Of a DNA stretch of 64,000 nucleotides, positions 23,352 through 56,296 are shown piece after piece (position 1 is the first letter of the stretch; every line of letters starts with the position of its first letter). The stretch is from NCBI GenBank assembly GCA_019651595.1, contig BOYQ01000004.1:40534-104533 (forward strand). Direction: 5' to 3'. The position numbers and the translations under genes were made by a program. The DNA is from Candidatus Poseidoniales archaeon (GTDB taxonomy: Archaea; Thermoplasmatota; Poseidoniia; Poseidoniales; Poseidoniaceae). The notes below the pieces were generated by a model. That model saw nothing but the letters and a program-made list of their open reading frames with translations. It was not told the origin of the DNA and did no database searches.

Positions 23352-24982
23352 ATGCCCAACAGCATCCCCAAGCCGCCCACCCCCGTCAACGAACCCGTCC
23401 TCGGCTACTTGCCGGGCAGCAAGGAGCGAGCCGAGCTTGAGGCGGAACTCAAGCGGCAGTCAAGCGAGGTCCTCGAAATTCCCTGCATCATCAACGGCGA
23501 GGAAGTGTTCACCGGCGATGTGGTCGAGCAGGTCATGCCGCACAACCACGGCCACGTCATCGCCCGAGTGCACATGGCAGGGGAAAAGGAAGTCAACGCC
23601 GCCATCGACGCCGCCCTCGGCGCCCACGAGATGTGGTCCACGATGGAATGGCAGGCGCGTGCCGCTATTTTCCTCAAGGCCAGCGAGTTGCTGAAAGGAC
23701 CTCGCCGAGCCGAAATCAACGCCTCCACCATGCTCAACCAGTCAAAGACCTGCCACCAGGCCGAGATTGACTCGGCCTGCGAACTGATCGATTTCTGGCG
23801 ATTCAATTCCGACTATGCTCGTCAAATCTACGAAGACCTGCAGCCACCCATCTCTCCCTCGTCCATGTGGAACTCCAGCGAAGTGCGACCTCTGAGGGCT
23901 TCATCTTCTCGGTCACACCCTTCAACTTCTCAAGCATCGCCGCCAACCTTCCGTCGTGCGCCGCCATCATGGGCAACGTCGGCGTGTGGAAACCGTCCCG
24001 AAATTCCTACGTTTCGAACTACCGATTGATGCGTCTGATGATGGACGCAGGTCTGCCCGGTGGCGTCATCAACTTCGTGCCCGGACGGGCCGCTGTTGTG
24101 GGCGACATTTGCTTGGCGCACCGTGAGTTAGCAGGTATTCACTTTACCGGTTCAACCCGAGTTTTCCGTCAGATGTGGCGAGACGTGGCCAACAACCTCG
24201 AGAACCTGAAATCCTACCCTCGCATCGTCGGTGAAACGGGCGGCAAGGACTTCATCGTGGCCCACCCCGACTGCGACCGCCAAGCCCTGCTCGTGGCCAT
24301 GCTCCGCGGTGGATTTGAGTTCCAAGGCCAGAAGTGCAGCGCTGCAAGCCGCGTCTACGTGCCACGCTCGGTGTGGGACGCCATCAAGGACGACTACGTC
24401 GCCGAGGTCAACAAGATCACCGTGGGCGACGTGGCGGACTTCAGCAACTTCCTCGGCGCCGTCATCGACAAGAAGGCCTTTGACAGCATCACGGGCTACA
24501 TCGACCGCGCTGCTGCCAACCCTGATTGTGAGATCATCACCGGCGGCACCTACGACGACAGCACGGGCTACTTCATTCAACCCACGACCATCGTGTGCAA
24601 TGACCCGCGCAGCGAGACCATGGCCGAGGAAATCTTCGGTCCGGTACTCTCGGTTCACGTCTACGCCGACGAGGACTTTGAAGCCACGTTGGAACTGTGC
24701 GACACGACTTCGGAGTACGCCCTCACGGGGTCCATCTTTGCCACCGACCGACGCCACATCGAGACCGCGGTCAAAGCGCTCCGCTACAGCGCTGGGAACT
24801 TCTACATCAACGACAAGCCCACGGGCGCCGTGGTCGGTCAGCAACCCTTCGGCGGGGCTCGAGGAAGCGGAACGAACGACAAAGCCGGCAGCCCGCTCAA
24901 CTTGCTTCGGTGGGTCAGCCCCCGTTCCATCAAGGAAACCTTTGCACCGCCCCACGACTGGACGTACGGGTTCCTCGACTGA
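23352..24982 (+). CDS. 1-pyrroline-5-carboxylate dehydrogenase (aldehyde dehydrogenase family), one frameshift near 23894
   Basis: ORFs 23352..24029 and 23867..24982 are the two halves. They join as ..SSMWNSSEVRPL|EGFIFSVTPFNFSSIAANL.. if one G is restored in CTG(G)AGGGC. Downstream: FTGSTRVFRQMW, VGETGGKDF, FEFQGQKCSAASR. Confidence 0.85.
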
Positions 24983-35020: not shown

Positions 35021-36250
35021 TCAGAGATAGACGTTTTTGAGATGCTGAACCGTTTGGTTGACCAAGCCGTTGGCTTTGGCAAAGGCCATCGCATCCTTGC
35101 CCTCTTTGCTGTGAACGTACAACGCCTCACCGGGACTCACAAGTTTGTTCCAGTGCTTTTGAAACCACGATGCGTGTGATTTCTTCCCGGCGAGGCAAGA
35201 CGGAACCCGATAGAACATGACCACCTCTTTTCGCTCCTTTCGGACGTACTTGGCAAGCACTTCAGGCAGCAGGCGAGAAAGGAAGGTCTCGTCGAAAAAA
35301 CGAGCGGCTCTGCTGATGACGTACCGGGCACCGTCAATGGGGCCGAAGACCTCGCTGATGGCCTCTGCAAACATGGCCGATTGTTCCTCCGTGCACTCTT
35401 CAAGGTAATACCTGAACCAGCCCCCTCCTCGTTCACCACCGCCCAGTTTAGCGTATTTTGGCAGCAGACCGACCTCCCACATGCCAAGGGCGACCGCTTC
35501 AATGATGGCACGGTTCAGCGATTCATCCGTCCACGGGTCAGCCAATTTTCCAAATCCAAACTGCTCCCCACCCACCGGTTGTGGGGCATGAACTCCAGAC
35601 TTTTCGGGAATCAGCAGAGAAGGGTGTGCCGATGGCCCATAACTCCCGTGAGGCCGTGCGGCGACGTGCTCGCTCAAGCATTTCTTGATTGATGACGCCC
35701 ATGCCTTCGTTGACGCTTCGGGTTTTAATTCGGTGAAGGCAGCGTGGACGTGGCCCACGCCTTTCTCTATAGAACCATCGTCGCAAACGCCATAGAGGTT
35801 CTTGTGCTTTCGCTCAAACCGCTCGTAATCGTCAAACCCTTTGATGAATTCTTCAGCGAGACAGACGATGTCCCAGTTGTTGGCCACCTTTTCAGGCCAC
35901 AATTTGTCCAGCCGCATGGACCGACCTCGAAGCTGATTGATGCTCATGCTCGTGGTCACCGTGGTCAGGTCAACCAGCACGTTGATCCGAGAGGCGTCCC
36001 AACCTTCACCCAACAAGCCCCGTGTACCGACAGGCATCGCGTCATGCCCTCTTGAAAAATTCAGTGACCATGGTGGAGTAGTACCGAGGCGCCCAATCCT
36101 TCCCCGAACCGTGAATGTGGTGAAAACGACCCATCGATTCATCGCGAATTCAATGGAGAGGTTTCGCTCGCTCACCCAGGTACGCGCTCGTTCAAGAAAT
36201 CGCGCAGAGAGGTCGTCATCGACGAGCAGGGTGCTGCCCGTCATGAGCAC
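35021..36250 (-). CDS. SF2 helicase, C-terminal fragment (RecA2 motif VI region plus ~300-aa uncharacterised domain)
   Basis: VGTRGLLGEGWDASRINVLVDLTTVTTSMSINQLRGRSMR (helicase C motifs). Joins ORF 36241..37788 as ..GDQLDP|VLMTGSTLLV if one G is restored in CC(G)GTG. About 3 further frame changes at 36040-36130 (GRFHHIHGSGKDWAPRYYSTMVTEFFKR lies in another frame). Confidence 0.65.
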   Translation of the reverse strand: MLMTGSTLLVDDDLSARFLERARTWVSERNLSIEFAMNRWVVFTTFTVRGRIGRLGTTPPWSLNFSRGHDAMPVGTRGLLGEGWDASRINVLVDLTTVTTSMSINQLRGRSMRLDKLWPEKVANNWDIVCLAEEFIKGFDDYERFERKHKNLYGVCDDGSIEKGVGHVHAAFTELKPEASTKAWASSIKKCLSEHVAARPHGSYGPSAHPSLLIPEKSGVHAPQPVGGEQFGFGKLADPWTDESLNRAIIEAVALGMWEVGLLPKYAKLGGGERGGGWFRYYLEECTEEQSAMFAEAISEVFGPIDGARYVISRAARFFDETFLSRLLPEVLAKYVRKERKEVVMFYRVPSCLAGKKSHASWFQKHWNKLVSPGEALYVHSKEGKDAMAFAKANGLVNQTVQHLKNVYL

Positions 36251-37788
36251 GGGTCGAGCTGGTCGCCCAACTCACACGCGACCAGCGCCTTGAACACACC
36301 GATTGCACCGCCGGCCTCGTCATCGTGGACTTCATCGACAACCGCCGTAGACGACGTCTTCTCAAAATCCGTCACGATGACACAGCGTATGCGCTCGCCA
36401 AGTTCTTCGTATTCCACCCGCAAAATGTCGGACAAGGCCTCGGTTTTTGCTTGTGCATATGCGAGGATTCGTCCAACCGGCGATGCGCAGGGTCGTGCAC
36501 CGCTGGAGGTGATTTGGTAGCCGAGTAGCTGGAACCGTCTGGAGACCTCATCGGCGAGTTCCTGGTCTTTTGGATGAGTGGAGCGTAGCAAACCAAAGCG
36601 GACATAGCGGTCCAGCAGCGGTCGAAGCAGAACAATCATCGGCGTGCTGTCGCGGAAATCCCCAAACCCAATCGCCGACATTGGGACACCTTTCGGAAGC
36701 GTGCGCTTCTTGACCGTGAGGTAGGCACGGGCCGCATCAGAAAACTTTGGCAACGTTTTGTGAAACTCGGCATAGGTGAGCCCCTCCCGCCCGGGTATTC
36801 GGCGATGTTCAAGGGTGTCAGCGAGCCAATCCGGGAAACACAACGCTCGGCCTTCCTCGACGAAGGGTTGAGAAATCTCATCAACCACTTCGAGAAAGGC
36901 CGTATCTGCTTCAGAAATGTAAGCGATTTCCTTGGGTGTCGGTCGAACGAAGTAAGCGAGGTCCTGATACGGAGCAAGGTTTGAGTCTCGAACGAGCGCA
37001 GGTGTTGGTACCTCGTAATCGATCTCTCCGAGGAGTTCTTTGTAGTGGACCACGCCTGCTTTTTCTTCGTCTGGAGGGGTGGCCGTCAGACCGAGGACAA
37101 TGGGATTTCCGAGTTCTTCACGGAGGGCCAAGAGAACTTCTCCCCAATGTTCGGTCAAGTGATGGCACTCATCGAGAATGATGAGCCCGATGTTGGCGGC
37201 CTTCAACGCATCAATGGAGGCTTTTGCTCCCTCGTTGAGCCACGCCAGGGCACCGTCTTCACCCACTTTCTGACGTCGAACTTTTTTCCGATGTTTCTTC
37301 ATTTCCTTCTCGAAATAATCGGGATTTTTGACGCGGAGGTCCTCAAGCCACGCCAAACCGGATGCCTCGTCGATGGCTTCACCGTCTTCTATCAATTTTG
37401 ACAACCACAGTTGGAGACCAGCCCTCTCGAGATCGTCGCCCTTGCTGCGGACCATCGTCAGCGATTGGTACGTCAACGAGGTGAGGAGACCTGGGCGCCT
37501 CGGGTCCAGGCTCAACCCGTCTTCGTTGCCGTCCAAGTCAAACAACGAAGTTCTTGCGAGCCATTGAGCCTGAATGGCAGAGTTGGGAGACAGAACGAGG
37601 GCCGGTTGGCGAACCATGTCCGCCCAGACGTAAAGCCCGAGGATAGTTTTCCCCGAGCCCGGTGGGGCGACGATGTAAAGTTGGTTTGCACCCGCTGAAA
37701 GTTGCGGTTCGATCACCGATTTAGCGGCTGATTGAGACGGACGTAATGTTCCAGAGAAACCAATGTTGCCGAAGTCAACGGAGCCCAT
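36241..37788 (-). CDS. SF2 (DECH-box) helicase, N-terminal fragment
   Basis: Walker A IVAPPGSGKTILG. Motif II LIILDECHHL. Motif III LGLTATPP. Confidence 0.8.
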   Translation of the reverse strand: MGSVDFGNIGFSGTLRPSQSAAKSVIEPQLSAGANQLYIVAPPGSGKTILGLYVWADMVRQPALVLSPNSAIQAQWLARTSLFDLDGNEDGLSLDPRRPGLLTSLTYQSLTMVRSKGDDLERAGLQLWLSKLIEDGEAIDEASGLAWLEDLRVKNPDYFEKEMKKHRKKVRRQKVGEDGALAWLNEGAKASIDALKAANIGLIILDECHHLTEHWGEVLLALREELGNPIVLGLTATPPDEEKAGVVHYKELLGEIDYEVPTPALVRDSNLAPYQDLAYFVRPTPKEIAYISEADTAFLEVVDEISQPFVEEGRALCFPDWLADTLEHRRIPGREGLTYAEFHKTLPKFSDAARAYLTVKKRTLPKGVPMSAIGFGDFRDSTPMIVLLRPLLDRYVRFGLLRSTHPKDQELADEVSRRFQLLGYQITSSGARPCASPVGRILAYAQAKTEALSDILRVEYEELGERIRCVIVTDFEKTSSTAVVDEVHDDEAGGAIGVFKALVACELGDQLDPCS

Positions 37789-37797
37789 GGTGGCACC

Positions 37798-42590: not shown

Positions 42591-43766
42591 TCATGCTTGG
42601 CGCGTGAAGGCCTGAATCCCGGTGATGTATCGGCCCAAAATCAGGTTGTGAATGTCGTGGGTTCCTTCGTAAGTTTTCACTGACTCGAGGTTGGCCATGT
42701 GGCGCATGACCGGGTATTCGTCCAGAATACCGTTGGCGCCGTGAATGTCTCGGGCCACACGAGCGATTTCGAGGGCGATGTCGACATTGTTCATCTTGGC
42801 CAGGGAGATCTGTTCAGGGAACCAGGTGCCGTCATCCTTCTTTTTGCCGAGGTGGTAAGCGAGCAGTTGGCCCTTCGTGATCTCACGCAACATCCACGCC
42901 AATTTGTTCTGCACGAGTTGGTAGGATGCGATGGGGTGGTCGAACTGGATACGAGAAAGAGCGTAGGTCTTGGCGCTGTGGAAGCACGCCATGGCCGAGC
43001 CGAGCGCACCCCAGGAAATACCGTAGCGAGCGTTGTTCAGGCAGGAGAACGGACCGCGAAGGCCTTTGACACCTGGCAGCATACGGTCCTTGGGAATCTT
43101 GCAGTCTTGGAACACCAATTCGCTGGTGACGCTGGCTTTCAGCGAGTGCTTTCCTTTCATTTCAGGTGCTGAATAGCCTTCATCACCTTTCTCAACGATG
43201 AAGCCACGGATGACGCCGTCCAACTTCGCCCAGACGACGGCCAAGTCGGCGATGGTCCCGTTGGTGATCCACATTTTGGCGCCGTTCAAGAGGTAGTGAT
43301 CGCCTTTGTCTTCGGCTTTGGTGACCATGTCACCGGGGTTTGAACCGTAGTCGGGCTCGGTCAGGCCGAAGCAGCCAATCCATTCGCCAGAGGCCATCTT
43401 TGGAAGGTACTTCTCCTTCTGTTCCTCGGTGCCGAAGTCCCAAATCGGGTACATGGCGAGGGACCCTTGAACGGAAGCAAACGAGCGCAGACCGCTGTCG
43501 CCTCGCTCCAATTCCTGACAGATAAGGCCGTAGGCAACGTAGGAAAGACCGGGACAACCGTAGCCTTTCAGGGGAGCGCCGAGCACACCCATTTCGCCGA
43601 GGGCCACGCGCCACTCGTCGAGGAAAACGCCTTCCTCGCATGCCTGCTCGATTTTGGGGATGACGGCTTCGTCAACCCACTCGCGAACCATGTCGCGAAC
43701 CATGATTTCTTCCTCGGTCAGCAGGCTTTCGATGTTGTAAAAGTCAAGACCCTCAAACGGCTCCAT
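42591..43766 (-). CDS. gcdH: Glutaryl-CoA dehydrogenase-like acyl-CoA dehydrogenase
   Basis: YGCPGLSYVAYGLICQELERGDSGLRSFASVQGSLAMYPI..GCFGLTEPDYGSNPGDM..NGAKMWITNG..LRGPFSCLNNARYGISWGALG..VKTYEGTHDIHNLILGRYITG. Confidence 0.88.
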   Translation of the reverse strand: MEPFEGLDFYNIESLLTEEEIMVRDMVREWVDEAVIPKIEQACEEGVFLDEWRVALGEMGVLGAPLKGYGCPGLSYVAYGLICQELERGDSGLRSFASVQGSLAMYPIWDFGTEEQKEKYLPKMASGEWIGCFGLTEPDYGSNPGDMVTKAEDKGDHYLLNGAKMWITNGTIADLAVVWAKLDGVIRGFIVEKGDEGYSAPEMKGKHSLKASVTSELVFQDCKIPKDRMLPGVKGLRGPFSCLNNARYGISWGALGSAMACFHSAKTYALSRIQFDHPIASYQLVQNKLAWMLREITKGQLLAYHLGKKKDDGTWFPEQISLAKMNNVDIALEIARVARDIHGANGILDEYPVMRHMANLESVKTYEGTHDIHNLILGRYITGIQAFTRQA

Positions 43767-43837
43767 GTCATCCCCCGTAACAAGGGCCACGCGGGTGCTT
43801 CATCAACATGTCCCCTCGGTTGATAGAAAGGGCGTGG

Positions 43838-45013
43838 TCATTTCTTCCCAAACCGCCATTCACGGTACTTTCGCTGCATCCACGGGCTGTTCATGTAGAC
43901 CAAACCGAGAATGACGCCTGGAACGGAAATCGCCACGGCGCCGAGCACCAAGACGTCCATGATGCTGGTCTCAATCACCTCAACGGCTGGATTAAACTCG
44001 ATGACGTTGCCAAAATCGGTGATGATGTACCCGTTATGTCGGGTGGTTTCCCAAACAACAGCGAGACCTCGGCCGGCCACCACCGCATCCCAAGCGGCCG
44101 CATCCTCGGGGAGAAGAACACTGAACGCCTCACCTGTCATGGGTGTGTAGCGAACCAAACCGAGCGGTGCAAGGTGAATCAAGCTCGTGCCGTCATCGCC
44201 TCGTCCGTCGCCAACGAACTCACCGCTGGGCAAGTCCCAAGGAACGCTGGCTTCAACGGTCGAGGAGCGGGCATCGAGCGTGTTGATGCGGACGACTTGG
44301 CTGACCAGACCGCTGGCAAAACCGACGCATTCGTTGAGGATGCCGCTGGCACAGTCCACGCCCACCCAAGTTTTGGAGGCGGTTTGAGGAAGCCAGGCGA
44401 TGCTGTGGCCTTCGTCGATCACGGCCATGCCCTCGTCCACCGAGGCGATGACGCAAACGTTGTAGTTTCGATGGCAGTCAACGTCCGTGACAGCGCTCTG
44501 CCCGTGGTTGTCGAGCTGTTCAAAACCGGTGTGCTCTGCGAATTTCCATACTTCCCCGGTCGAGGAGGCAACGTAGGCAAAATCGCCGCCGGGTCGCCAC
44601 TTGACCGCCGTGAGGTCGAACCCCAGCACGCTGAACGTACCGTTCACGTAAGTGATGCTGTGGTCGTACGTGTCGTAGCGCATCGCCATGCCGTCGTCCC
44701 CCACCAGCAACGCCGTGTTCCCACGGGGATGCCAAGCGATGTCGTGAACGGTGGAATTCCGCCCGGTCACCAACTCAACGTCGAGGGCACGGTTTCCGGC
44801 GTCATCGGCCGAAAGTAAACGCGCATAGCCGTTCATGCCCGCAACGAGGACGTCGCTGCCGTCCGGTGAGACTTCTCCGACGGTGATGCCGAGGTCGTTC
44901 TCACCCAAGGCGCCAGCGTCGGTCAACTCGATACGGCTGACCATTTCACCCGACGCCAGCGGCGTCAGCATCAGCAGAACGAGGCTCAAGGCCAGCCAAG
45001 CAGGACGTCGCAT
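43838..45013 (-). CDS. Secreted beta-propeller-like protein with C-terminal TM anchor
   Basis: Signal MRRPAWLALSLVLLMLTPLASG. Repeated ..V.DIAWHP.GN.ALLVGDDG.. and ..AVKWRPGGDFAYVASS.G.. blades. TM helix VLVLGAVAISVPGVILGLVYM. Confidence 0.6.
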   Translation of the reverse strand: MRRPAWLALSLVLLMLTPLASGEMVSRIELTDAGALGENDLGITVGEVSPDGSDVLVAGMNGYARLLSADDAGNRALDVELVTGRNSTVHDIAWHPRGNTALLVGDDGMAMRYDTYDHSITYVNGTFSVLGFDLTAVKWRPGGDFAYVASSTGEVWKFAEHTGFEQLDNHGQSAVTDVDCHRNYNVCVIASVDEGMAVIDEGHSIAWLPQTASKTWVGVDCASGILNECVGFASGLVSQVVRINTLDARSSTVEASVPWDLPSGEFVGDGRGDDGTSLIHLAPLGLVRYTPMTGEAFSVLLPEDAAAWDAVVAGRGLAVVWETTRHNGYIITDFGNVIEFNPAVEVIETSIMDVLVLGAVAISVPGVILGLVYMNSPWMQRKYREWRFGKK

Positions 45014-45114
45014 GGCAAACCCACCCAACCCGCCATCAAAACATCTCCCCTGCCGGGGTCTTTGACATCCCCTCCGGACGGTGGCCTTATGAGACGCAAA
45101 CCGGTGCGGTTGGC

Positions 45115-45639
45115 ATGGAGCGATTTGCAGTCAAGCGTGGCCTGATTAAATCCATGGGTGGAAACGCAGGACTGGCCAAACTGGCCACGTCCTATTTTGA
45201 CAACATCAACGTGAACGCAGAAGGCGTCTTTACCGGCTCGTACGGCTTGCTGGTCAGCGTCCAGGGCTCCTACGATGACGCTGGAAAACTGGCGGTGGAT
45301 GTTGTTCAACTCAAGGGCGCCGATTTGGCTGCTTTCCTCGACGGCGACGGCGGTCGTGAACAGGCCATGGAATCTCGAAAACGATGGTCCGGTTTCCTCG
45401 ATGAAGCCACCGGCTACACCGCCAAACAGCGCGGCGACAAGGCCAAAGAAGAAGCGAAGAAGTTCTCCAAGGCAAAATCGGCGATCAAGATGGCGCACAA
45501 ATCCATGGAGTTGATGAAGAACCTCGACCAGAGCACCATCGACCAAGCCAACCAGCTCATCGCCGACCTTGAGGCGATGATTGAAGCCGGCACGCCACCG
45601 TCCGAGACGCAGGTTAAGAAACTGGACAAGTTGTTCTGA
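45115..45639 (+). CDS. Conserved-looking hypothetical protein with Lys/Glu-rich helical C-terminus
   Basis: 174-aa ORF with ATG start, immediately upstream of tyrS. No motif recognised with confidence. Confidence 0.5.
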   Translation: MERFAVKRGLIKSMGGNAGLAKLATSYFDNINVNAEGVFTGSYGLLVSVQGSYDDAGKLAVDVVQLKGADLAAFLDGDGGREQAMESRKRWSGFLDEATGYTAKQRGDKAKEEAKKFSKAKSAIKMAHKSMELMKNLDQSTIDQANQLIADLEAMIEAGTPPSETQVKKLDKLF

Positions 45640-45648
45640 GGCACTTCC

Positions 45649-46794
45649 ATGGCGTCCAAGCAAGACATTCCGGCCTTGCTGTTGTCCAAGGAAGGTTACG
45701 ACCAACTGACCGATGAGGCGAGGCAACGCCTGCTCACCATGGTGGGTGAAGTGGAGGAGGTGGTCGGTGTTGAACACCTCATTCAGGCGCTTCACACCGG
45801 AACTTCTCACGGAGGCGACGGGGTGCTGCGGTGCTACGTTGGCTTTGAACCCAGTGGAAAAGCCCACATCGGCTGGAAAGTGTTGGCGTTGCAACTTCGC
45901 CGAATGCTCGATGCCAACGCCAACGTGATGGTGTTCCTGGCCGACTGGCACGCATGGGTCAACGACAAATTCAACGGCGACATGGAGGCCATTCAAACCA
46001 CGGCCGTGTACATGCAAGAAACTTTCAGAGCCCTGCTCGACCACCCTCCGGAAGGAACCGGGCCGGGAGAATTGCAATTCAAGTGGGCCTCGGAACTCAT
46101 GGAATCCAGCGACTATTGGGCCCGCGTGCTGCGGTGTTCGAAGGGTGCAACGCTAGCGATGGTTCGCAAAACGTTCACCATCATGGGTCGCGACGAAGCG
46201 TCGTCCGACCACGATCTGTCCAAATTCTACTACCCCGCCATGCAGGCTGCGGACATTTTCGAAATGGACATCGACATCGCCATTGGCGGCATGGACCAAC
46301 GAAAAGCCCACATGTTCATGCGGGACGTTGCCTCGAAATACGGCTGGGAGAAAGCAACGTGCCTTCACACACCCATCGTTTCCTCTCTGAAGGCCTCCGG
46401 TGCTCGGATGGAATCCTTCGATCATAAAATGTCCAAATCCGACCCGAACGGGGCCCTGCTGCTTCATGACACCCACGAACAGATACGGAAGAAGATGAAG
46501 AAGGCTTACATCTCCCCCGACGACCCTCAATCTCCGGTGTATGAACTGGCCGAGCACATCCTCCTCCCTGAATTTGGAGAAATCGTCGTGACGCCGAACC
46601 CGAAGTTCGGTGAACCAAGCACGTGGACGGACCTTGAAGCCTTCAGAAACGCCGTCATGGACGGTACGCTTCACCCGCTGGATGCGAAGTTTGGGGTCGC
46701 TGACGGGCTGTCAAAGGGGCTCGAATCCTTGGCAAACCATTTCGACGCCAACCCCGAGACCCTCGACCGTGTGACGGCGCTCATGAATCGCTGA
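45649..46794 (+). CDS. tyrS: Tyrosine--tRNA ligase (archaeal type)
   Basis: CYVGFEPSGKAHIGW (HIGH-like), YPAMQAADIF, GGMDQRKAHMFMRD, KMSKS. Confidence 0.85.
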   Translation: MASKQDIPALLLSKEGYDQLTDEARQRLLTMVGEVEEVVGVEHLIQALHTGTSHGGDGVLRCYVGFEPSGKAHIGWKVLALQLRRMLDANANVMVFLADWHAWVNDKFNGDMEAIQTTAVYMQETFRALLDHPPEGTGPGELQFKWASELMESSDYWARVLRCSKGATLAMVRKTFTIMGRDEASSDHDLSKFYYPAMQAADIFEMDIDIAIGGMDQRKAHMFMRDVASKYGWEKATCLHTPIVSSLKASGARMESFDHKMSKSDPNGALLLHDTHEQIRKKMKKAYISPDDPQSPVYELAEHILLPEFGEIVVTPNPKFGEPSTWTDLEAFRNAVMDGTLHPLDAKFGVADGLSKGLESLANHFDANPETLDRVTALMNR

Positions 46795-47645
46795 ATTCAT
46801 CCTGGACGGGCAACTCTTCGACGCTCAGGATGTCGATGGAAAGCAGTCGACGGGTGTCTTTTGCAAAGTTCCGTTCCGGGACGGGTTGTACACGAACGAT
46901 GCCGTTGATTCGAGCGTAGGTTGACGATTCCAGCGCGTGCACCAAATCGTCCGCCACCGTCCCGACAATTTGGTTCGCGTTGAGCAGTTGATGAGCCGAT
47001 GTTCGCTGTTGTAGGTGATTTGGCTCATGCTGATGTCCTGCACGTCCTCGTAAACGCATTCCTCGATGACCATCCTGAAATTTGGCCGCGGTGAAACATG
47101 CCCATGGGGAGGTCTTTGGTGTCCATGTCGCTGAACACCTTGTCCAAGCAGACCCGACAGACCCGAGGGCTCTCACGCTCCCTCGCACGCCGCTGATTGA
47201 TGACGGTTGGTGTGCCGCAATCCAAACACTCGTAGGTGGCTTGCTTGAGCCACCCGTAAGGCTGCGAGACCTCGTTGATTTTGACGTCCAAGCACACCAA
47301 ATCGTTGCGGTCTCGCATGCGGAGCTCGTCAACACGATTGAGGTAGTTCTCAGGTAGCCCGACCACGCGGATGACCGGACGGGTGGGGATGTTGTTGGCG
47401 TCGAATTGCTCACGCATGATGCGGTGCCCCAGCTCAAGCGCTCGCGTTGGGTTCTCATGGAACATGTGACGCAGCGTGGGTTGCTGGTCGATGAGGTGAT
47501 GCTCGACGTGAAAACCGTGAACGCTGTCCTCCATGCCATGGAGGCGGGCGATGTCGGCTTTGTAGTTGGAAACGATGACCGTTTTCCACTCTCGGAGGGC
47601 GGCCTGTTCTTCGGGATCAATCTTGACGTTCTTCGGTGGAGGCAT
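46781..47645 (-). pseudogene. MCM N-terminal-domain-only gene (helical bundle plus C4 zinc finger/OB), at least 2 frameshifts
   Basis: ORF 47025..47645 reads ..RVVGLPENYLNRVDELRMRDRNDLVCLDVKINEVSQPYGWLKQATYECLDCGTPTV..RVCRVCLDK (CxxC-x18-CxxC). It continues in other frames as FRMVIEECVYEDVQDISMSQ and NANQIVGTVADDLVHALESSTYARINGIVRVQPV. No AAA+ domain follows; it stops at 46781 against the tyrS 3' end. Confidence 0.5.
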
Positions 47646-47789
47646 GGAGTTTCCCCGCTTGTGGGACGGTTCATAATCCTACCCTCCACCGCTCCGAAAG
47701 AAGGCTCGGGGTTGAGACGCCATGCGGTGTAGTGGCAAGGTTCATGAATTGAGTCCCGGTGCAAAAGTTGCAAACTGGAGTGACCGTTC

Positions 47790-48525
47790 ATGCCCAACAT
47801 CATCGTCCTCGTCAAGCAAGTTCCCGACACCAACGCCAAGATCGTCGTCAACGGCGATCGAGTTGACCTTTCCACCGCGAAAATGGTGATGAGCCCCTAC
47901 GACGAATTCGCCGTTGAAACGGCCCTCAAGCACAGGGAAGCAGCGGGCGGGGAGGTCACAGCGCTGACCGTCGGCGGTGCTGGAGCTGAGAAATCCTGAA
48001 GGACGCCAAGGCCATCGGCGTCGATCACATCGGTTCGAATCGACGCCACCGGCGACATGGATTCGAACGCCCTGCAGAGCGTCCTTGCCCCGCCGTCGCC
48101 GAACTGGGCGGCGAGGTGGTGTACTGTGGGAAATCAGCGGCCGACACCGGCGCTGGCTCAACTGGACCCGGTGTGGCTGAACGCATGGGCTGGGCCTCGG
48201 TGTCCAACATCGTGGGCGCCTCGTTCTCCGACGGCGTCAACGTCGTCATGCCGAGCGGTGGTGGCAACGCTCAGGTCAGCGTCCCCCTTCCAGCGGTCGT
48301 GTCGTGCGACAAAGGGGATTTCAAGGTCCGAAAGCCCAACGGAAGGGCATCATGCAAGCCAAGAAGGCAAGTGTGGACGTTCGTTCTATAGAGGCTCCAG
48401 CATCAACCGTCTCCATCGTCAACCACGCCCTGCCACCCGCCAAACCAGCGGGGAAGAGCTACCAGGGCGGTGCAGCCGCTGCTGAAGTCGCACAGTTGCT
48501 TCGTGATGAAGCCAACGTCCTATGA
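47790..48525 (+). pseudogene. etfB: Electron transfer flavoprotein beta subunit, at least 4 frame disruptions
   Basis: MPNIIVLVKQVPDTNAKIVVNG..MSPYDEFAVETALK (ORF 47790..47999). Continues as ILKDAKAIGVDHI, DMDSNALQSVLAP, VVYCGKSAADTGAGSTGPGVAERMGWASVSNIV.., and GIMQAKKASVDVRS..QLLRDEANVL*, spread over all three frames. Confidence 0.8.
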
Positions 48526-48534
48526 GGTGATTCC

Positions 48535-49451
48535 ATGACACAAACCATCGTAATTGCAGAAATGAACAACAACGCCGTCCACCCGAGCACCGCAGAATTG
48601 GTGAGCGCCGCCAAAATTCTTGGCGGAGAACCCACCTTGTCGTGCCCTGCACGGACGCAAGCCAGGCCAGCGGCGCTGCCGGCATGGGGGCAGGGAACAT
48701 CATCGCCGCCAAGGCCGAAGCCTTCAGCCACTACGACGCCAGCGGATGGGCAGCCGCCCTCGACGCCGTTGTCCCCCAAGGCACCGTGATCACGGGCGCC
48801 AGCCCGCAATCCAAGGACCTCGCAGCCCGCTTTGCCGCTCGACGAAACCTCTCGGTCGTTCAGGATGCGGTGAACATCGAAGGGACGACCATCACGTCGC
48901 CGGTCTACAGCGGGAAAGCCATGCAAACCGTGGCCGTCAGCGGTCCCGTCGTCGTCTCGGTTCGCTCCAACGTGTTCGCTCCGTCCGAGGGCGGCGCCAC
49001 CGATGTGGCCGTCATCGACACCACCGGCAACGTGGCCACCTCCGTTAAGGAATTCATGGCTCGTGCGTCGAACGCCTCGACGTGCCGAAGCCAACATCAT
49101 CATCTCCGGTGGCCGCGCATGGGCTCACCTGACAATTTCACGCACCTCGAAGCCATGCCGACACCATCGGTGCTGCCGTTGGCGCTTCTCGCCGCCGTGG
49201 ACTCCTGGGAGCCATTCCTCACTCGATGCAAGTGGGCCAGACGGGAAAACCGTCAATCCCAACCTCTACATCGCCGTCGGAATTTCAGGCGCCATCCAGC
49301 ACCCGCCGGCATGCGGTCCTCTGAAGTACATCGTCGCCATCAACAAGGACGCCGACGCTCCAATCTTCCAACACGCCGACTACGGCATCGTTGCAACGTG
49401 GAGGATGCCCTGCCCGTGCTTCACGAGAGCCTCAAAGGCATGATGGCCTGA
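48535..49451 (+). pseudogene. etfA: Electron transfer flavoprotein alpha subunit, at least 4 frame disruptions
   Basis: MTQTIVIAEMNNNAVHPSTAELVSAAKILGGEPTL; [42 protein letters not shown]; ANIIISGGR; [17 protein letters not shown]; [21 protein letters not shown]; [11 protein letters not shown]. These pieces lie in alternating frames. Confidence 0.8.
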
Positions 49452-50213
49452 TCAGGCGTACTTCCCAAAACCGTACGTCCCTCCCACCAGCGGGAGTCGC
49501 CTACAAACGGGTTGGTTCGTTTCTCGTGCCCGATGGTCGTCAGTGGACCGTGCCCGGATGGACCACGGTGTCTTCGTCCAGTGGCCACATTGGGTGTGAA
49601 TGGACCGAGCCAGAAGGTCAAAATCACCGCCGGAATTGGCATATCGGTTCGACCAACCGACCCTGCGAAGAGCGTGTCGCCCACGAAGACATGGTCGGGC
49701 CGTTCTCGACGGAACCAGAAGGCAACACCTCGCAAGGGTGTGGCCGGGTGTGAAGAACGCTCAGTTCGAGCGTTCCAAAAGCGTACGTTTTCCCGCTTCG
49801 AAGGCGCAGTCCGCCTCGGCAGGTTCCGGCAGCGAAAGTCCGTAGCGACGCCCGGAGGCCTGGGCGAGGGTCTGAAGAAAATCGTCATCAGGATGGAGGT
49901 ACCATTCCACGCCGTAGTGCTCTCGAAGCACTGGAATGAAGCCGCTGTGGTCAAAGTGTGCGTGGGTGTTGACGAGCGCCACCACCCGTCGGTTTGGAAG
50001 ACCTCGTTCCTCGGCCACCGCAGCGTTGTCTGGACCCGTGGTCCAGTTGGGCCCCGGCCCCTCAAAGCCGTCAACCCAATCGATGATGCGTTGTGGCTCG
50101 TCGCCGCCGTCAATGATGATGGTGTCGCCGCTCACAGGGTCGGTCACCACCGAACAGCGCATCTGGAGTGGACCAACGAAGAAGTGGTCAATCCACGGTT
50201 CACGCAGGGCCAT
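49421..50213 (-). pseudogene. Metallo-beta-lactamase-fold hydrolase (glyoxalase II-like), at least 3 frame disruptions
   Basis: MALREPWIDHFFVGPLQMRCSVVTDPVSGDTIIIDGG..ALVNTHAHFDHSG (HxHxDH). Then FVGDTLFAGSVGRTD, GGDFDLLARSIHTQ, LDEDTVVHPG and GHGPLTTIGHEKRTNPF lie in different frames. One junction looks like GGC(C)ACGG. Confidence 0.75.
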
Positions 50214-50235
50214 GACTCGCCGAGGTTGCCCCCCT

Positions 50236-51732
50236 TCATGAGGTTGAGCCATCGACGATGGACACGACCAACGCATCCGTGGTCCACGAACCCTGCCGGT
50301 CGACCACCCGCAGTTCGAATCGATGACGGCCGAGGGCAATTTGAGTTTCACCTGCGCAACGTCGGCAAGTTCCTGTCCGCGGTCATCGCACCACGACCAC
50401 GTGGCGATTTGGTCCTGAGGATCGTACGATCCGCGCCCGTCGAGAAGGACGATGCAGGTCCCATCATCATCGGCCACATGCCGCTGGTCGTCGCCTGCCA
50501 CCGCACGCGGGGCGATGAACTCCTCCACGGATGCGGAGAGGGCGTCGAGCAGGGACCCCGTTTCTTCCAAAGTCAAGTCTCACCGGACTGAAGTGCTTCC
50601 ATCAATTCATCTTCAGTGGGCCCTTCGCTGGATGGTTCATGGCGGCCACCTCACCGTCCATCGCTTCCAACAGCGATGCGTGAGCGACCTCCGGTTGACC
50701 GGTTCGCATGTGCTCCTGTTCTTCGTCGGTCAGGAAGGTGAGAACATCTCGTCGTCGCCGTAGAGTTCCTCGGCCGACAACGGCGAAGCGACCGCCTCTT
50801 CTTGGAACCAGAGGGTCAATTCAGCGGCATCGAGGTCTTCAACCGGCAACGAAGGTCGACCCAACCAATGGGCTCTGCAGCGGTGTAGTCGTTCTGGTCG
50901 TCGCCTGCGAACACCAAGCCTCCCAAACGCTCGGATGTGCACATCAAACGGGGCATGCCCTGGTGCTCGATTTTCCAGGGCTGTTCATCATGAAGACCGT
51001 GAACGTAAAACCACGAACTGGCGATGACTTCGAAATTCTGTTCGAGGCACGCAAACACCGCATACCCCGTCTCGAGAACGGGTTCCATGCGTCCGTCCTC
51101 GTGAAGGCGGTGAACGGAACCGTCATCAAAGCCAAGGATCGCCCCTGAAGAAGATGGAGAAGATGTAAGCAATCGCCTACGTAGGTCCTCTCGCACAATC
51201 AGCCGGTCGTTTTCCCAGAACTCGAACTCGATGGCTTCCTCCTCACCCGCCACAAGAGCGTGCCCCTCACGGGTCAAGAAAAGACGTCCTGACGTCGTCA
51301 ACCCCATCGCCGTGATACGCTCGCCGTGAACCCCACGAGCCGGTCGCCTCCAGACCACGCTCTGCCCTCGCAAGCCAGAACCGTGCCGTTCTGTTCTGCG
51401 ATGAACACGCGCTGGTCATGAACTTCCACGTGGACCACGTCGTCCAGCCCGTGAGTCTGAGAGAGACTGACGGACGGTCGGCCTCGCTGGACAAGAACAA
51501 CTTCACCCATGCCGGTGAGCACCGCCAATTTCAGACCCATCGGACGACAGGTCTGGACGCCGCCGTCAATGTCTTGGGTTTCAATCGGGCTTCCGTCGAG
51601 GTCGTGGAAGGCCAATGAACCAAGCTCGTCACCGACCACCAAGCCATCACGATGAAACCCAAGATACGACACTTGATGGGGAGCCATCCAAAACCTGAGC
51701 GTTTCAAATTCACCACCGGAATAACGACCCAT
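50236..51732 (-). pseudogene. Repeat (propeller-like) - acidic linker - PKD-like domain protein, many frame disruptions; extent approximate
   Basis: Fragments: ORF 51298..51732 and ORF 50816..51373 (repeated ..G.V..L....G.. blades); LSAEELYGDDE / VLTFLTDEEQEHMRTGQPEV / TEDELMEALQSGE; DDGTCIVLLDGRGSYDPQDQIATWSWCDDRGQEL.. then LGRHRFELRVVDRQGSWTTDALVVSIVDGSTS* (PKD-like; stop at 50236). Confidence 0.4.
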
Positions 51733-51885
51733 GCAAACTTTCGTTGCCCCTCAACCCAAGCAAGACGGCCGGATGACTCACCCAAGGGCCCAAAAGATTC
51801 CCCCAGGTGGGCGAACAAGGGAAACGGGTGTGTGAGCCCATGAACCGACACGGGACGGTCGTAAAAAAGAACTCGGGTGCAGGGC

Positions 51886-53340
51886 TCAAAGCGCTTCGTC
51901 GTTGTAAAGGTCGATGACGGCATCGTAAAGTGAGTTTGGGCCCTTGGCAGCATCGTTTCGAGCATCGTAGAGTTTCTGCAATAGGCGTCGTCAATGTCCC
52001 CCGTGATGTATTCACCGTTGGCAACTCGCATCAAACGCCTTGACGCGGAGGTCTCCGGGAGGGTGACGTCGTCAAATCCTAAAGGGTTTGATAAAAAGGG
52101 CGATCCCCCAATGGTCGGGTTTGATCTCTTCGATGCTTCACCGTTGGGATAATTTCGTTGACGGCCGGCATGTCGATGCCGTCCCGTTGGGGTGCCGAAC
52201 CGGCGGCGCTGCGGAAGGAAGTAGACTTGGCGGCGCCGACTTTCCCCCATCTCAAATGTCGCTGGTGGCCCCCCGAACGATGGAGCCCGGCCAAAGAATT
52301 TTTCCAGGGAAATTTCGTTCAAGGCGTTGTTTTTGCGGCGGAGGGATTTTTCCCGCAGGGCCTGACCTGGCATATGAACGTACGGCCCACATAGGGGTTT
52401 TTTTGACAAACCCCCCTCCCAGGGGGGGTTCAACGCTTTCGCCATTTAATTTAATTACCGGAATCGGGGATTGGAATCACGACGTCAATGTCGTGGTCCG
52501 GCCAAGATTCAGCATTCGTTCAGCGCCGTTGCCCTTTGGTTCAATCGCTTGAAAAGGGCACCCGTCATGACGGAATCGGGGCGTGCAAGAAACGTATTCG
52601 GATACGGCACCCCGCCGGTTCAGAGCACTGGCGCAAAAACAAATGCCCGGGACGCATGATGGGAACGCCTCACCCGGCAGGATATCCCTGTTTTCGGCCG
52701 AGCGCCGTGATGGCACACTTTCACTGGCCACGATGTATTCGGGACCCCCGGTTTCCCCTTCCCCTATACCAGAACGCCGTTGGGGGAGGAAAGGGCCCGC
52801 AACCACCGAAAAAGACCAAACGGGTAATCCAACCCGACGTTTACGGCGCCACCGCACCAAACACCGTCTCAATGTTCATTGGGGTCGCCTAATGCGCAGG
52901 GAAGAACTGCGCTCACCCAATTCAACGGCCAGGGCGTTGAGGAGGAGTTCTGAGTCACTCGTGGTGTTGATGTGGCGCATGCAGTCGTCGCGCAGAAATT
53001 TCCCGAGGGCCTCGGCATTCGTGAGGTTGCCGTTGTGAGCGAGCGCAATCCCGTAGGGTGAATTGACGTAGAAGGGCTGAGCCTCCGCTCTTGAGGAAGA
53101 CCCGGCAGTGGGGTACCGAACGTGGCCAATGCCAACGTTGCCCTCCAGTCGAAGCATGTGGCGCTTGAAGAAGACATCTGCCACCAAGCCGTTGGACTTT
53201 CGCAGTCGGAAGTGCCCGTCGGTATCGGTGAGAATTCCCGCAGCGTCTTGACCGCGGTGCTGGAGAACGGTCAACCCGTCATACAGCAATTGATTCACAT
53301 GTGCTCCTTGATGGCCAACAATGCCAAGGATGCCACACAT
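51886..53340 (-). pseudogene. purF: Amidophosphoribosyltransferase, heavily disrupted (many frame changes, AT-rich lesion with stops)
   Basis: [64 protein letters not shown] (intact to 52876). Recognisable pieces then appear in shifting frames: EYIVASES, RDILPGEA, DIDVVIPIPDSGN, AKALNPPWEGGL, YVGRTFI.PGQALREKS.RRK.NALNE, SIVRGATS, GIDMPAVNE.I, GEYITGDIDDAY, LQKLYDARNDAAKGPNSLYDAVIDLYNDEAL* (stop at 51886). Confidence 0.75.
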
Positions 53341-55493: not shown

Positions 55494-55508
55494 GGAGGCT
55501 GAGCCTCC

Positions 55509-56296
55509 ATGGTGAATCAAGAAGGCACCACCCCCGAAGAAGGGGAACTGGTGGTTGCGACCATCAAAACCGTGAAGCAAAACGGTGCGTACGTTGACCT
55601 GGACGAATACGAAGGCATCGAGGGTTTCATTTTCATCGGTGAAATCGCCTCGGGGTGGGTCAAAAACATTCGAGGATTTGTGCGAGAAGGCCAGCGTGTG
55701 ATCTGCAAGGTCATGCGCACGCGGCGGGACGGAACGTCCCTCGAATTGTCCCTCAAATCTGTTTCCGAGGAGCGTCGAAGGGACCGACTGCAGGAATGGA
55801 AAAACGAGCAACGCGCTCAGCAGCTGCTCAAGGTCCTTGGAGAAAAAGTCGGATGGTCGGATGACGACGTGGCCGAGCAATCCCTCGAACTCATCGAGGC
55901 ATTCGGTGGCCTGTATGCGGCCTTTGAAGAGGCCGCCATGCAGGAAGGTGCGTTGGAAAATGCAGGGTTCGAAGGCGAATGGTTGCCGTCCTTCATCGAA
56001 ATCGCCGTTGAGAACATCATCCCACCCTTCGTCGAAGTGCGGGGCACGCTCACGCTGAGCATCAACGTCAACGACGGCGTCTCCATCATCCGTTCGGCGC
56101 TTGAAGCGGCCGAATCTCTCTCAAACGAGAAGAAGAGATCGACGTGAAGTGTTTCTACGACGGTGCGCCCTCGTATCGAATCGAACTGAAGGCACCGGAT
56201 TTCAAAGTGGCGGAGTCGATGTGGGAACTCGCCACGAAAGCGGTGGTTGATCACATGACGGCCGCCGGCGGCGAAGCCACCGCCCAACGGGAGTGA
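55509..56296 (+). CDS. eif2a: Translation initiation factor aIF2 alpha subunit, one frameshift near 56127-56135
   Basis: S1 domain EGELVVATIKTVKQNGAYVDLDEYEGIEGFIFIGEIASGWVKNIRGFVREGQRVICKV. The ORF ends ..SNEKKRST*, but the shifted frame gives EEEIDVKCFYDGAPSYRIELKAPDFKVAESMWELATKAVVDHM..AQRE* (the expected C-domain). This is consistent with GAG(G)AAGAAGAG. Confidence 0.88.

Follow-up and report, generated by a model that had tools for sequence, protein, structure and literature searches.

The stretch of DNA analysed here, hereafter called the window, comprises 64,000 nucleotides (nt) and corresponds to C4:40534-104533 of the source genome (G000). The source assembly is a highly contiguous metagenome-assembled genome (MAG), assigned by the names of homologues to Candidatus Poseidonia (Poseidoniales, Marine Group IIa archaea), with 1.79 Mb in 12 contigs, ~59 % G+C and an estimated completeness of only 64 %. 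Six consecutive genes between 46.8 and 53.35 kb of the window, hereafter called the zone, are disrupted by frameshifts in the deposited sequence, and two patches in the zone are particularly dense in small insertions and deletions (indels). The genes, with protein lengths in amino acids (aa), and the two patches are as follows.

46799..47678, minus strand: MCM_OB-domain gene (294 aa in relatives), lacking 1 nt at each of 46976 and 47090; Pfam MCM_OB (orthologue)
47790..48525, plus strand: etfB (electron transfer flavoprotein beta, ~245 aa), with 4 frameshifts at 47995, 48032, 48091 and 48342; Pfam ETF
48535..49451, plus strand: etfA (308 aa), with 11 frameshifts; Pfam ETF and ETF_alpha
49452..50258, minus strand: gene for a metallo-beta-lactamase-fold (MBL) hydrolase (256-273 aa), with ~9 frameshifts, in the 3' half; Pfam Lactamase_B
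50239..51873, minus strand: gene for a conserved 540-556-aa protein, with at least 8-10 frameshifts; no Pfam family above the cut-off
51889..53340, minus strand: purF (amidophosphoribosyltransferase, 513-516 aa), intact over the N-terminal 153 aa and with at least 27 frameshifts in the rest; Pfam GATase_6/7 and Pribosyltran
49071..49795, no strand: dense patch A, 725 nt with 17 deletions and 2 insertions (19 indel events)
51723..52890, no strand: dense patch B, ~1170 nt with at least 50 indel events, additional non-synonymous mismatches and an AT-rich 'pentamer' lesion at 52440-52462

The disruption of the six genes, which an earlier note on this DNA had described, was confirmed with a frameshift-aware protein-to-DNA aligner written for this work, by which intact orthologues from G003, G005, G007 and G011 were aligned to the window (these genomes, together with G002 and G008, are relatives of the same genus). 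The aligner placed 2 frameshifts in the MCM_OB gene, 4 in etfB, 11 in etfA, ~9 in the MBL gene, 8-10 in the gene for the 540-aa protein and ~27 in purF. Nearly all of these events were -1 or -2 nt, and a single in-frame stop was found in the six genes together. After frame correction the amino acid identities to the G003 orthologues were 86 % (MCM_OB), 91 % (etfB), 92 % (etfA), 88 % (MBL), 66 % (540-aa protein) and 79 % (purF). The Pfam families were assigned on the intact orthologues of the broken genes, and the purF homologues in the database bear the name amidophosphoribosyltransferase.

The same arrangement, MCM_OB (-), etfB (+), etfA (+), MBL (-), the gene for the 540-556-aa protein (-) and purF (-), was found in nine loci of the same genus, each gene being a single open frame. 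No sign of dispensability or loss of any of the six was seen in these relatives, all genes being intact and syntenic in the nine loci. The exception is G008, a genome of 10 contigs and 72 % completeness, in which a few 1-nt insertions (L003:4657, 7126 and 10404) break etfA and the gene for the 540-aa protein; these insertions are probably the same kind of assembly error. The best database matches for purF, P0001 and P0002 (loci L096-L098), also lie in an intact six-gene locus. They share only ~72 % DNA identity with the window, are not conspecific and were unfit for placing indels at base level.

Some features of the genes themselves were noted in the same comparison. The 294-aa protein (46799-47678; L004:551-1432) consists of a stand-alone MCM OB-fold/zinc-finger N-terminal domain without the AAA+ ATPase part, and its gene adjoins etfBA in all Poseidonia genomes examined. 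Within the genus the 540-556-aa protein retains 57-66 % identity, versus ~88 % for its neighbours, and so evolves much faster than they do; in the relatives, ~20 nt at the 3' end of its gene are shared with the start of the MBL gene. The label 'propeller/PKD' given to this gene in the earlier note found support below threshold only, from a C-terminal K319L-like PKD match (E = 4e-4, under the curated cut-off).

DNA of the same species was found among metagenome contigs. Those related to the locus came from the sea (Tara Oceans and marine JGI samples). Exact-protein look-ups of two intact neighbours, TyrS and a 284-aa gene, gave no match; contig L016 (MDTE01042660.1, Tara) was retrieved by a TyrS scan of metagenome contigs, and contig L099 (4225 nt), whose k119_ name suggests a MEGAHIT assembly, by the frame-corrected EtfA with its junctions masked as X. 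The two contigs span 43000-47274 (L016) and 48161-52318 (L099) of the window. The EtfA encoded by L099, P0121, is intact, and the corrected EtfA of the window is 96 % identical to it with 11 of the 308 query residues masked, the two being nearly identical outside the masked junctions.

Over 4277 aligned nt, L016 was 97.5 % identical to the window, with 103 mismatches and two gaps only. In each gap the window lacks a single base, and the positions, 46976 and 47090, coincide exactly with the frameshift sites of the MCM_OB gene. At aligned bases L099 and the window shared 96.7 % identity (139 mismatches, 3.3 %). They were separated by 60 indel events, namely 54 deletions in the window and 6 insertions; apart from single events of 3 nt and 7 nt, all were of 1-2 nt. 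The etfA (308 aa), MBL (256 aa) and 540-aa protein (L099:2099-3718) genes are all intact on L099, which also corroborated the etfB site at 48342. The bases absent from the window were present in L016 or L099 at 62 of the 62 sites compared. The comparison with related genomes and metagenomes that the earlier note had proposed thus supports an artefact, conspecific contigs ~97 % identical to the window carrying the genes intact.

The earlier note had counted at least 20 frame switches. The disruption is real, but this number is an understatement, ~80 small indels being found between 46976 and 52890. The total combines the conspecific DNA alignments (2 + 60) with three etfB sites (47995, 48032 and 48091) and 16 purF sites (52321-52890) from the aligner; in 47275-48160 and 52319-53340 the counts come from protein-to-DNA alignment. 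The indel rate was ~0.3 % overall in the 6-kb stretch and 2.6-4 % in the two ~1-kb patches. Patch B has more than 4 indels per 100 nt and multi-base deletions, with a spacing down to 4-10 nt.

Clustering was pronounced. In the other 35 kb compared there were ~14 events, from which 2.4 would be expected per 5.9 kb, versus ~80 observed (Poisson P ~1e-90). The flanking genes had been described as intact, and no frameshift was found in tyrS (45640-46791), the upstream 394- and 408-aa genes or the three downstream genes of 580-616 aa. By the same aligner procedure, window positions 22.5-64 kb outside the zone gave scattered events only, at 23893, 26997, 41329 and 56131 and six in a helicase gene. 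Those at 23893, 26997 and 41329 are lone single-base frameshifts in genes with 96, 80 and 90 % amino acid identity to G002, respectively, and are the background error rate of the assembly. The six in the 927-aa helicase-like gene (35024-37797, minus strand) form a second, smaller error patch at 35579-36248, with six -1/-2 frameshifts in 670 nt relative to the G002 orthologue.

The 62 indels relative to the conspecific contigs comprised deletions in the window of 1 nt (41), 2 nt (13), 3 nt (1) and 7 nt (1), and 6 insertions. The 7-nt deletion was placed, by an estimated coordinate, in the spacer between the gene for the 540-aa protein and purF, and may be natural variation. G or C was lost in 76 % of the 1-nt deletions, versus 59 % expected. 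One junction had been pinned in the earlier note, GGC(C)ACGG in the MBL gene, and it was recovered at site 49553, where the minus strand of the window reads GGGCACGG and the conspecific contig GGGCCACGG. The wider claim that the errors are single-base miscounts in short runs did not hold: a lone base was removed in 51 % of the 1-nt deletions, compared with 52 % of random positions, and no homopolymer enrichment of the deletions was found, the run lengths of the deleted bases being those of random positions. A miscount in a short run fits some sites and is not the rule.

Under genuine pseudogenisation, frameshifts would have accumulated in the strain until etfAB, purF and the adjacent genes were truly lost. 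The genes are indeed unreadable in the deposited sequence, and the conspecific contigs represent another strain. Substitutions provide a test of decay, for ~80 indels demand a long period of neutral evolution. Away from gaps, the window and L099 differed in the zone by 84 synonymous and 31 non-synonymous substitutions (73 % synonymous), and the third codon position accounted for 90 of 135. The intact flank, compared with L016, gave 69 synonymous and 33 non-synonymous substitutions (68 % synonymous). The selection check on frame-corrected sequence suggested in the earlier note therefore returned the same signature of purifying selection in zone and flank, and the relaxed selection expected of a pseudogene block was not seen. 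Even patch A, despite its 19 indels, had 20-23 synonymous versus 4 non-synonymous changes. The excess of non-synonymous changes and the one nonsense change were confined to patch B, the worst patch, a pattern that fits extra substitution errors together with misaligned bases near gaps.

Except in patch B, the density of substitutions in the zone was not above that of the flank, whereas the ratio of indels to substitutions was 60:139 in the zone versus 0:95 in the flank (Fisher P = 3.8e-12). Natural divergence at this locus yields no such indels: two short-read sister genomes, 6 % divergent over the same 9.4 kb, differed by 554 substitutions and 0 gaps. The indels of the zone are almost all deletions of 1-2 nt, with no large deletions or insertion sequences, and all relatives keep the six genes. 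A process that adds ~80 tiny deletions without altering the substitution spectrum is not evolutionary, and pseudogenisation is consequently considered very unlikely; decay of a metabolic block, left as an alternative in the earlier note, is not supported.

The lesions of purF had been singled out as not being simple indels, and the multi-base lesions of this gene, together with its one stop derived from a substitution, count in favour of pseudogenisation. Runs of T7, C6 and G7 occur in 52395-52462, along with an AT-rich segment of 11 nt in place of ~18 nt of expected coding sequence; Tandem Repeats Finder detected no repeat in the lesion. A TAG at ~52079, made by a substitution of G to T, is the sole nonsense change. 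Genuine decay is not needed to account for these lesions, which sit in the worst patch (51723-52890); the AT-rich lesion needs no separate explanation because patch B as a rule shows multi-base deletions and noisy substitutions. The lesion lies outside the part of the window spanned by the conspecific contigs, and the make-up given for it is provisional.

Genes that the organism can hardly have lost are damaged elsewhere in the assembly in the same way, which also argues against pseudogenisation. The aIF2-alpha gene (55503-56293, 264-267 aa) is split by a single -1 frameshift at 56128-56131, the G002 and G005 orthologues agreeing on the site. In the str operon (G000:C3:234936-238575), aEF-2 is divided between two frames and has to be read through three TGA codons, and rps12 is matched in two overlapping frames. 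Essential single-copy genes are thus broken outside the zone, as an artefact of the assembly would predict. Same-strand frame switches called with a codon-usage hidden Markov model amounted to 0.65 per kb genome-wide, 0.27-0.36 in syntenic short-read relatives and 1.98 in the zone, to be read as relative rates only, as this model and the track of open reading frame (ORF) lengths were noisy, dense patches being called 'non-coding' and frameshifts being inseparable from gene boundaries. Contig ends had shorter ORFs than internal bins (P = 0.007; weak evidence). The terminal 5 kb of C1 5', C10 5', C6 3', C7 5' and C9 5' had the shortest ORFs in the genome (0-3rd percentile), which suggests a degraded consensus at contig ends; rRNA or other non-coding content is an alternative.

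The six genes are, with high probability on the sequence comparisons made here, ordinary and functional in the organism, and the frame breaks an error of sequencing or assembly in the consensus rather than a biological feature. The local consensus or low-coverage error preferred in the earlier note is strongly supported by the conspecific contigs, the substitution spectrum and the broken essential genes found across the genome. The consensus shows a deletion-biased process of indel error throughout the genome, presumably arising from noisy long reads, and its quality collapses in this 6-kb stretch, as in an unpolished or very low-coverage long-read consensus. The collapse may have come from a dip in coverage, from a failed or unpolished polishing window, or from a stretch bridged by one or two reads (a single-read bridge).

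Several points weigh against this interpretation. The coverage, quality and platform of the reads are inferred. The conspecific contigs are ~97 % identical to the window and not from the same strain, so that lesions private to the strain are not strictly excluded by them, and they span neither 47275-48160 nor 52319-53340. The lack of homopolymer association of the deletions is atypical of a well-polished nanopore consensus, though it fits near-raw or low-coverage sequence.

A poorly resolved strain-variable segment, where the consensus suffered locally because reads from several Poseidonia strains living together were piled up as one, would be a sub-type of the artefact explanation and not a biological alternative to it. 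Marine metagenomes hold many close relatives of the locus (76-99 % identity), the gene for the 540-aa protein evolves fast, and the error density is uneven along the zone, all of which is in keeping with such mixing. Mixing predicts chimeric substitutions, however, rather than a 9:1 excess of deletions, substitutions are as dense in the flank as in most of the zone, and conserved genes, aEF-2 among them, have patches of the same kind. It is given only a slim chance.

Restoration of the frames at expression, by programmed frameshifting or insertional RNA editing, has nothing in its favour beyond the corrected peptides still being family-like. The ~80 sites are heterogeneous, with no common motif and no homopolymer or slippery context, and no conserved shift site with a slippery motif common to the relatives was found. 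The missing bases are present in conspecific and congeneric DNA, the frames of the relatives are uninterrupted, and in patch B the sites lie as close as 4-10 nt to each other. The probability of such recoding is practically negligible. The deletions could also be real and very recent, from a localised burst of 1-2-nt deletions (e.g. error-prone repair synthesis over a 6-kb tract in one Poseidonia lineage), too recent for substitutions to have followed, with the damage to essential genes being a separate sequencing artefact; this combination is extremely improbable.

If the breaks are consensus errors, as we conclude, the value of the finding is one of quality control only, a warning about this genome. 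The source genome is unfit for inferring that this Poseidonia species has lost purine synthesis (purF), electron-transfer flavoprotein or any other pathway. Consensus errors depress its completeness estimate as well as its gene calls and pseudogene counts. Any other finding from it that is based on frameshifts, truncations or oddly short ORFs is to be regarded as artefactual until confirmed by independent sequence.

Runs of adjacent genes cut by frameshifts are also a feature of pseudogene-rich decaying genomes, e.g. those of host-restricted bacteria. Such genomes differ from the present case in that selection is relaxed, nonsense mutations occur, indels vary in size, insertion sequences are often present and essential genes are spared, none of which is seen here. 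The closer likeness is to the gene-fragmenting indel errors of long-read assemblies and MAGs (nanopore or PacBio continuous long reads, CLR), with small, deletion-dominated indels, ORFs cut short and genes that look like pseudogenes. In nanopore MAGs, completeness suffers from indel errors, above all at low coverage, and CheckM completeness is reduced in such long-read assemblies despite their contiguity (PMC8103633; PMC12007338). The combination of high contiguity, low completeness and broken essential genes is a known signature of indel errors in long-read MAGs; the short-read sister MAGs, of 40-300 contigs, have a completeness of 77-94 %. Unlike the usual long-read assembly errors, those described here are strongly patchy (two ~1-kb patches with 2.6-4 % indels) and are not homopolymer-biased. 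Both differences suggest stretches of near-raw read quality, presumably from a noisy long-read platform, rather than the residual systematic homopolymer errors of a polished consensus.

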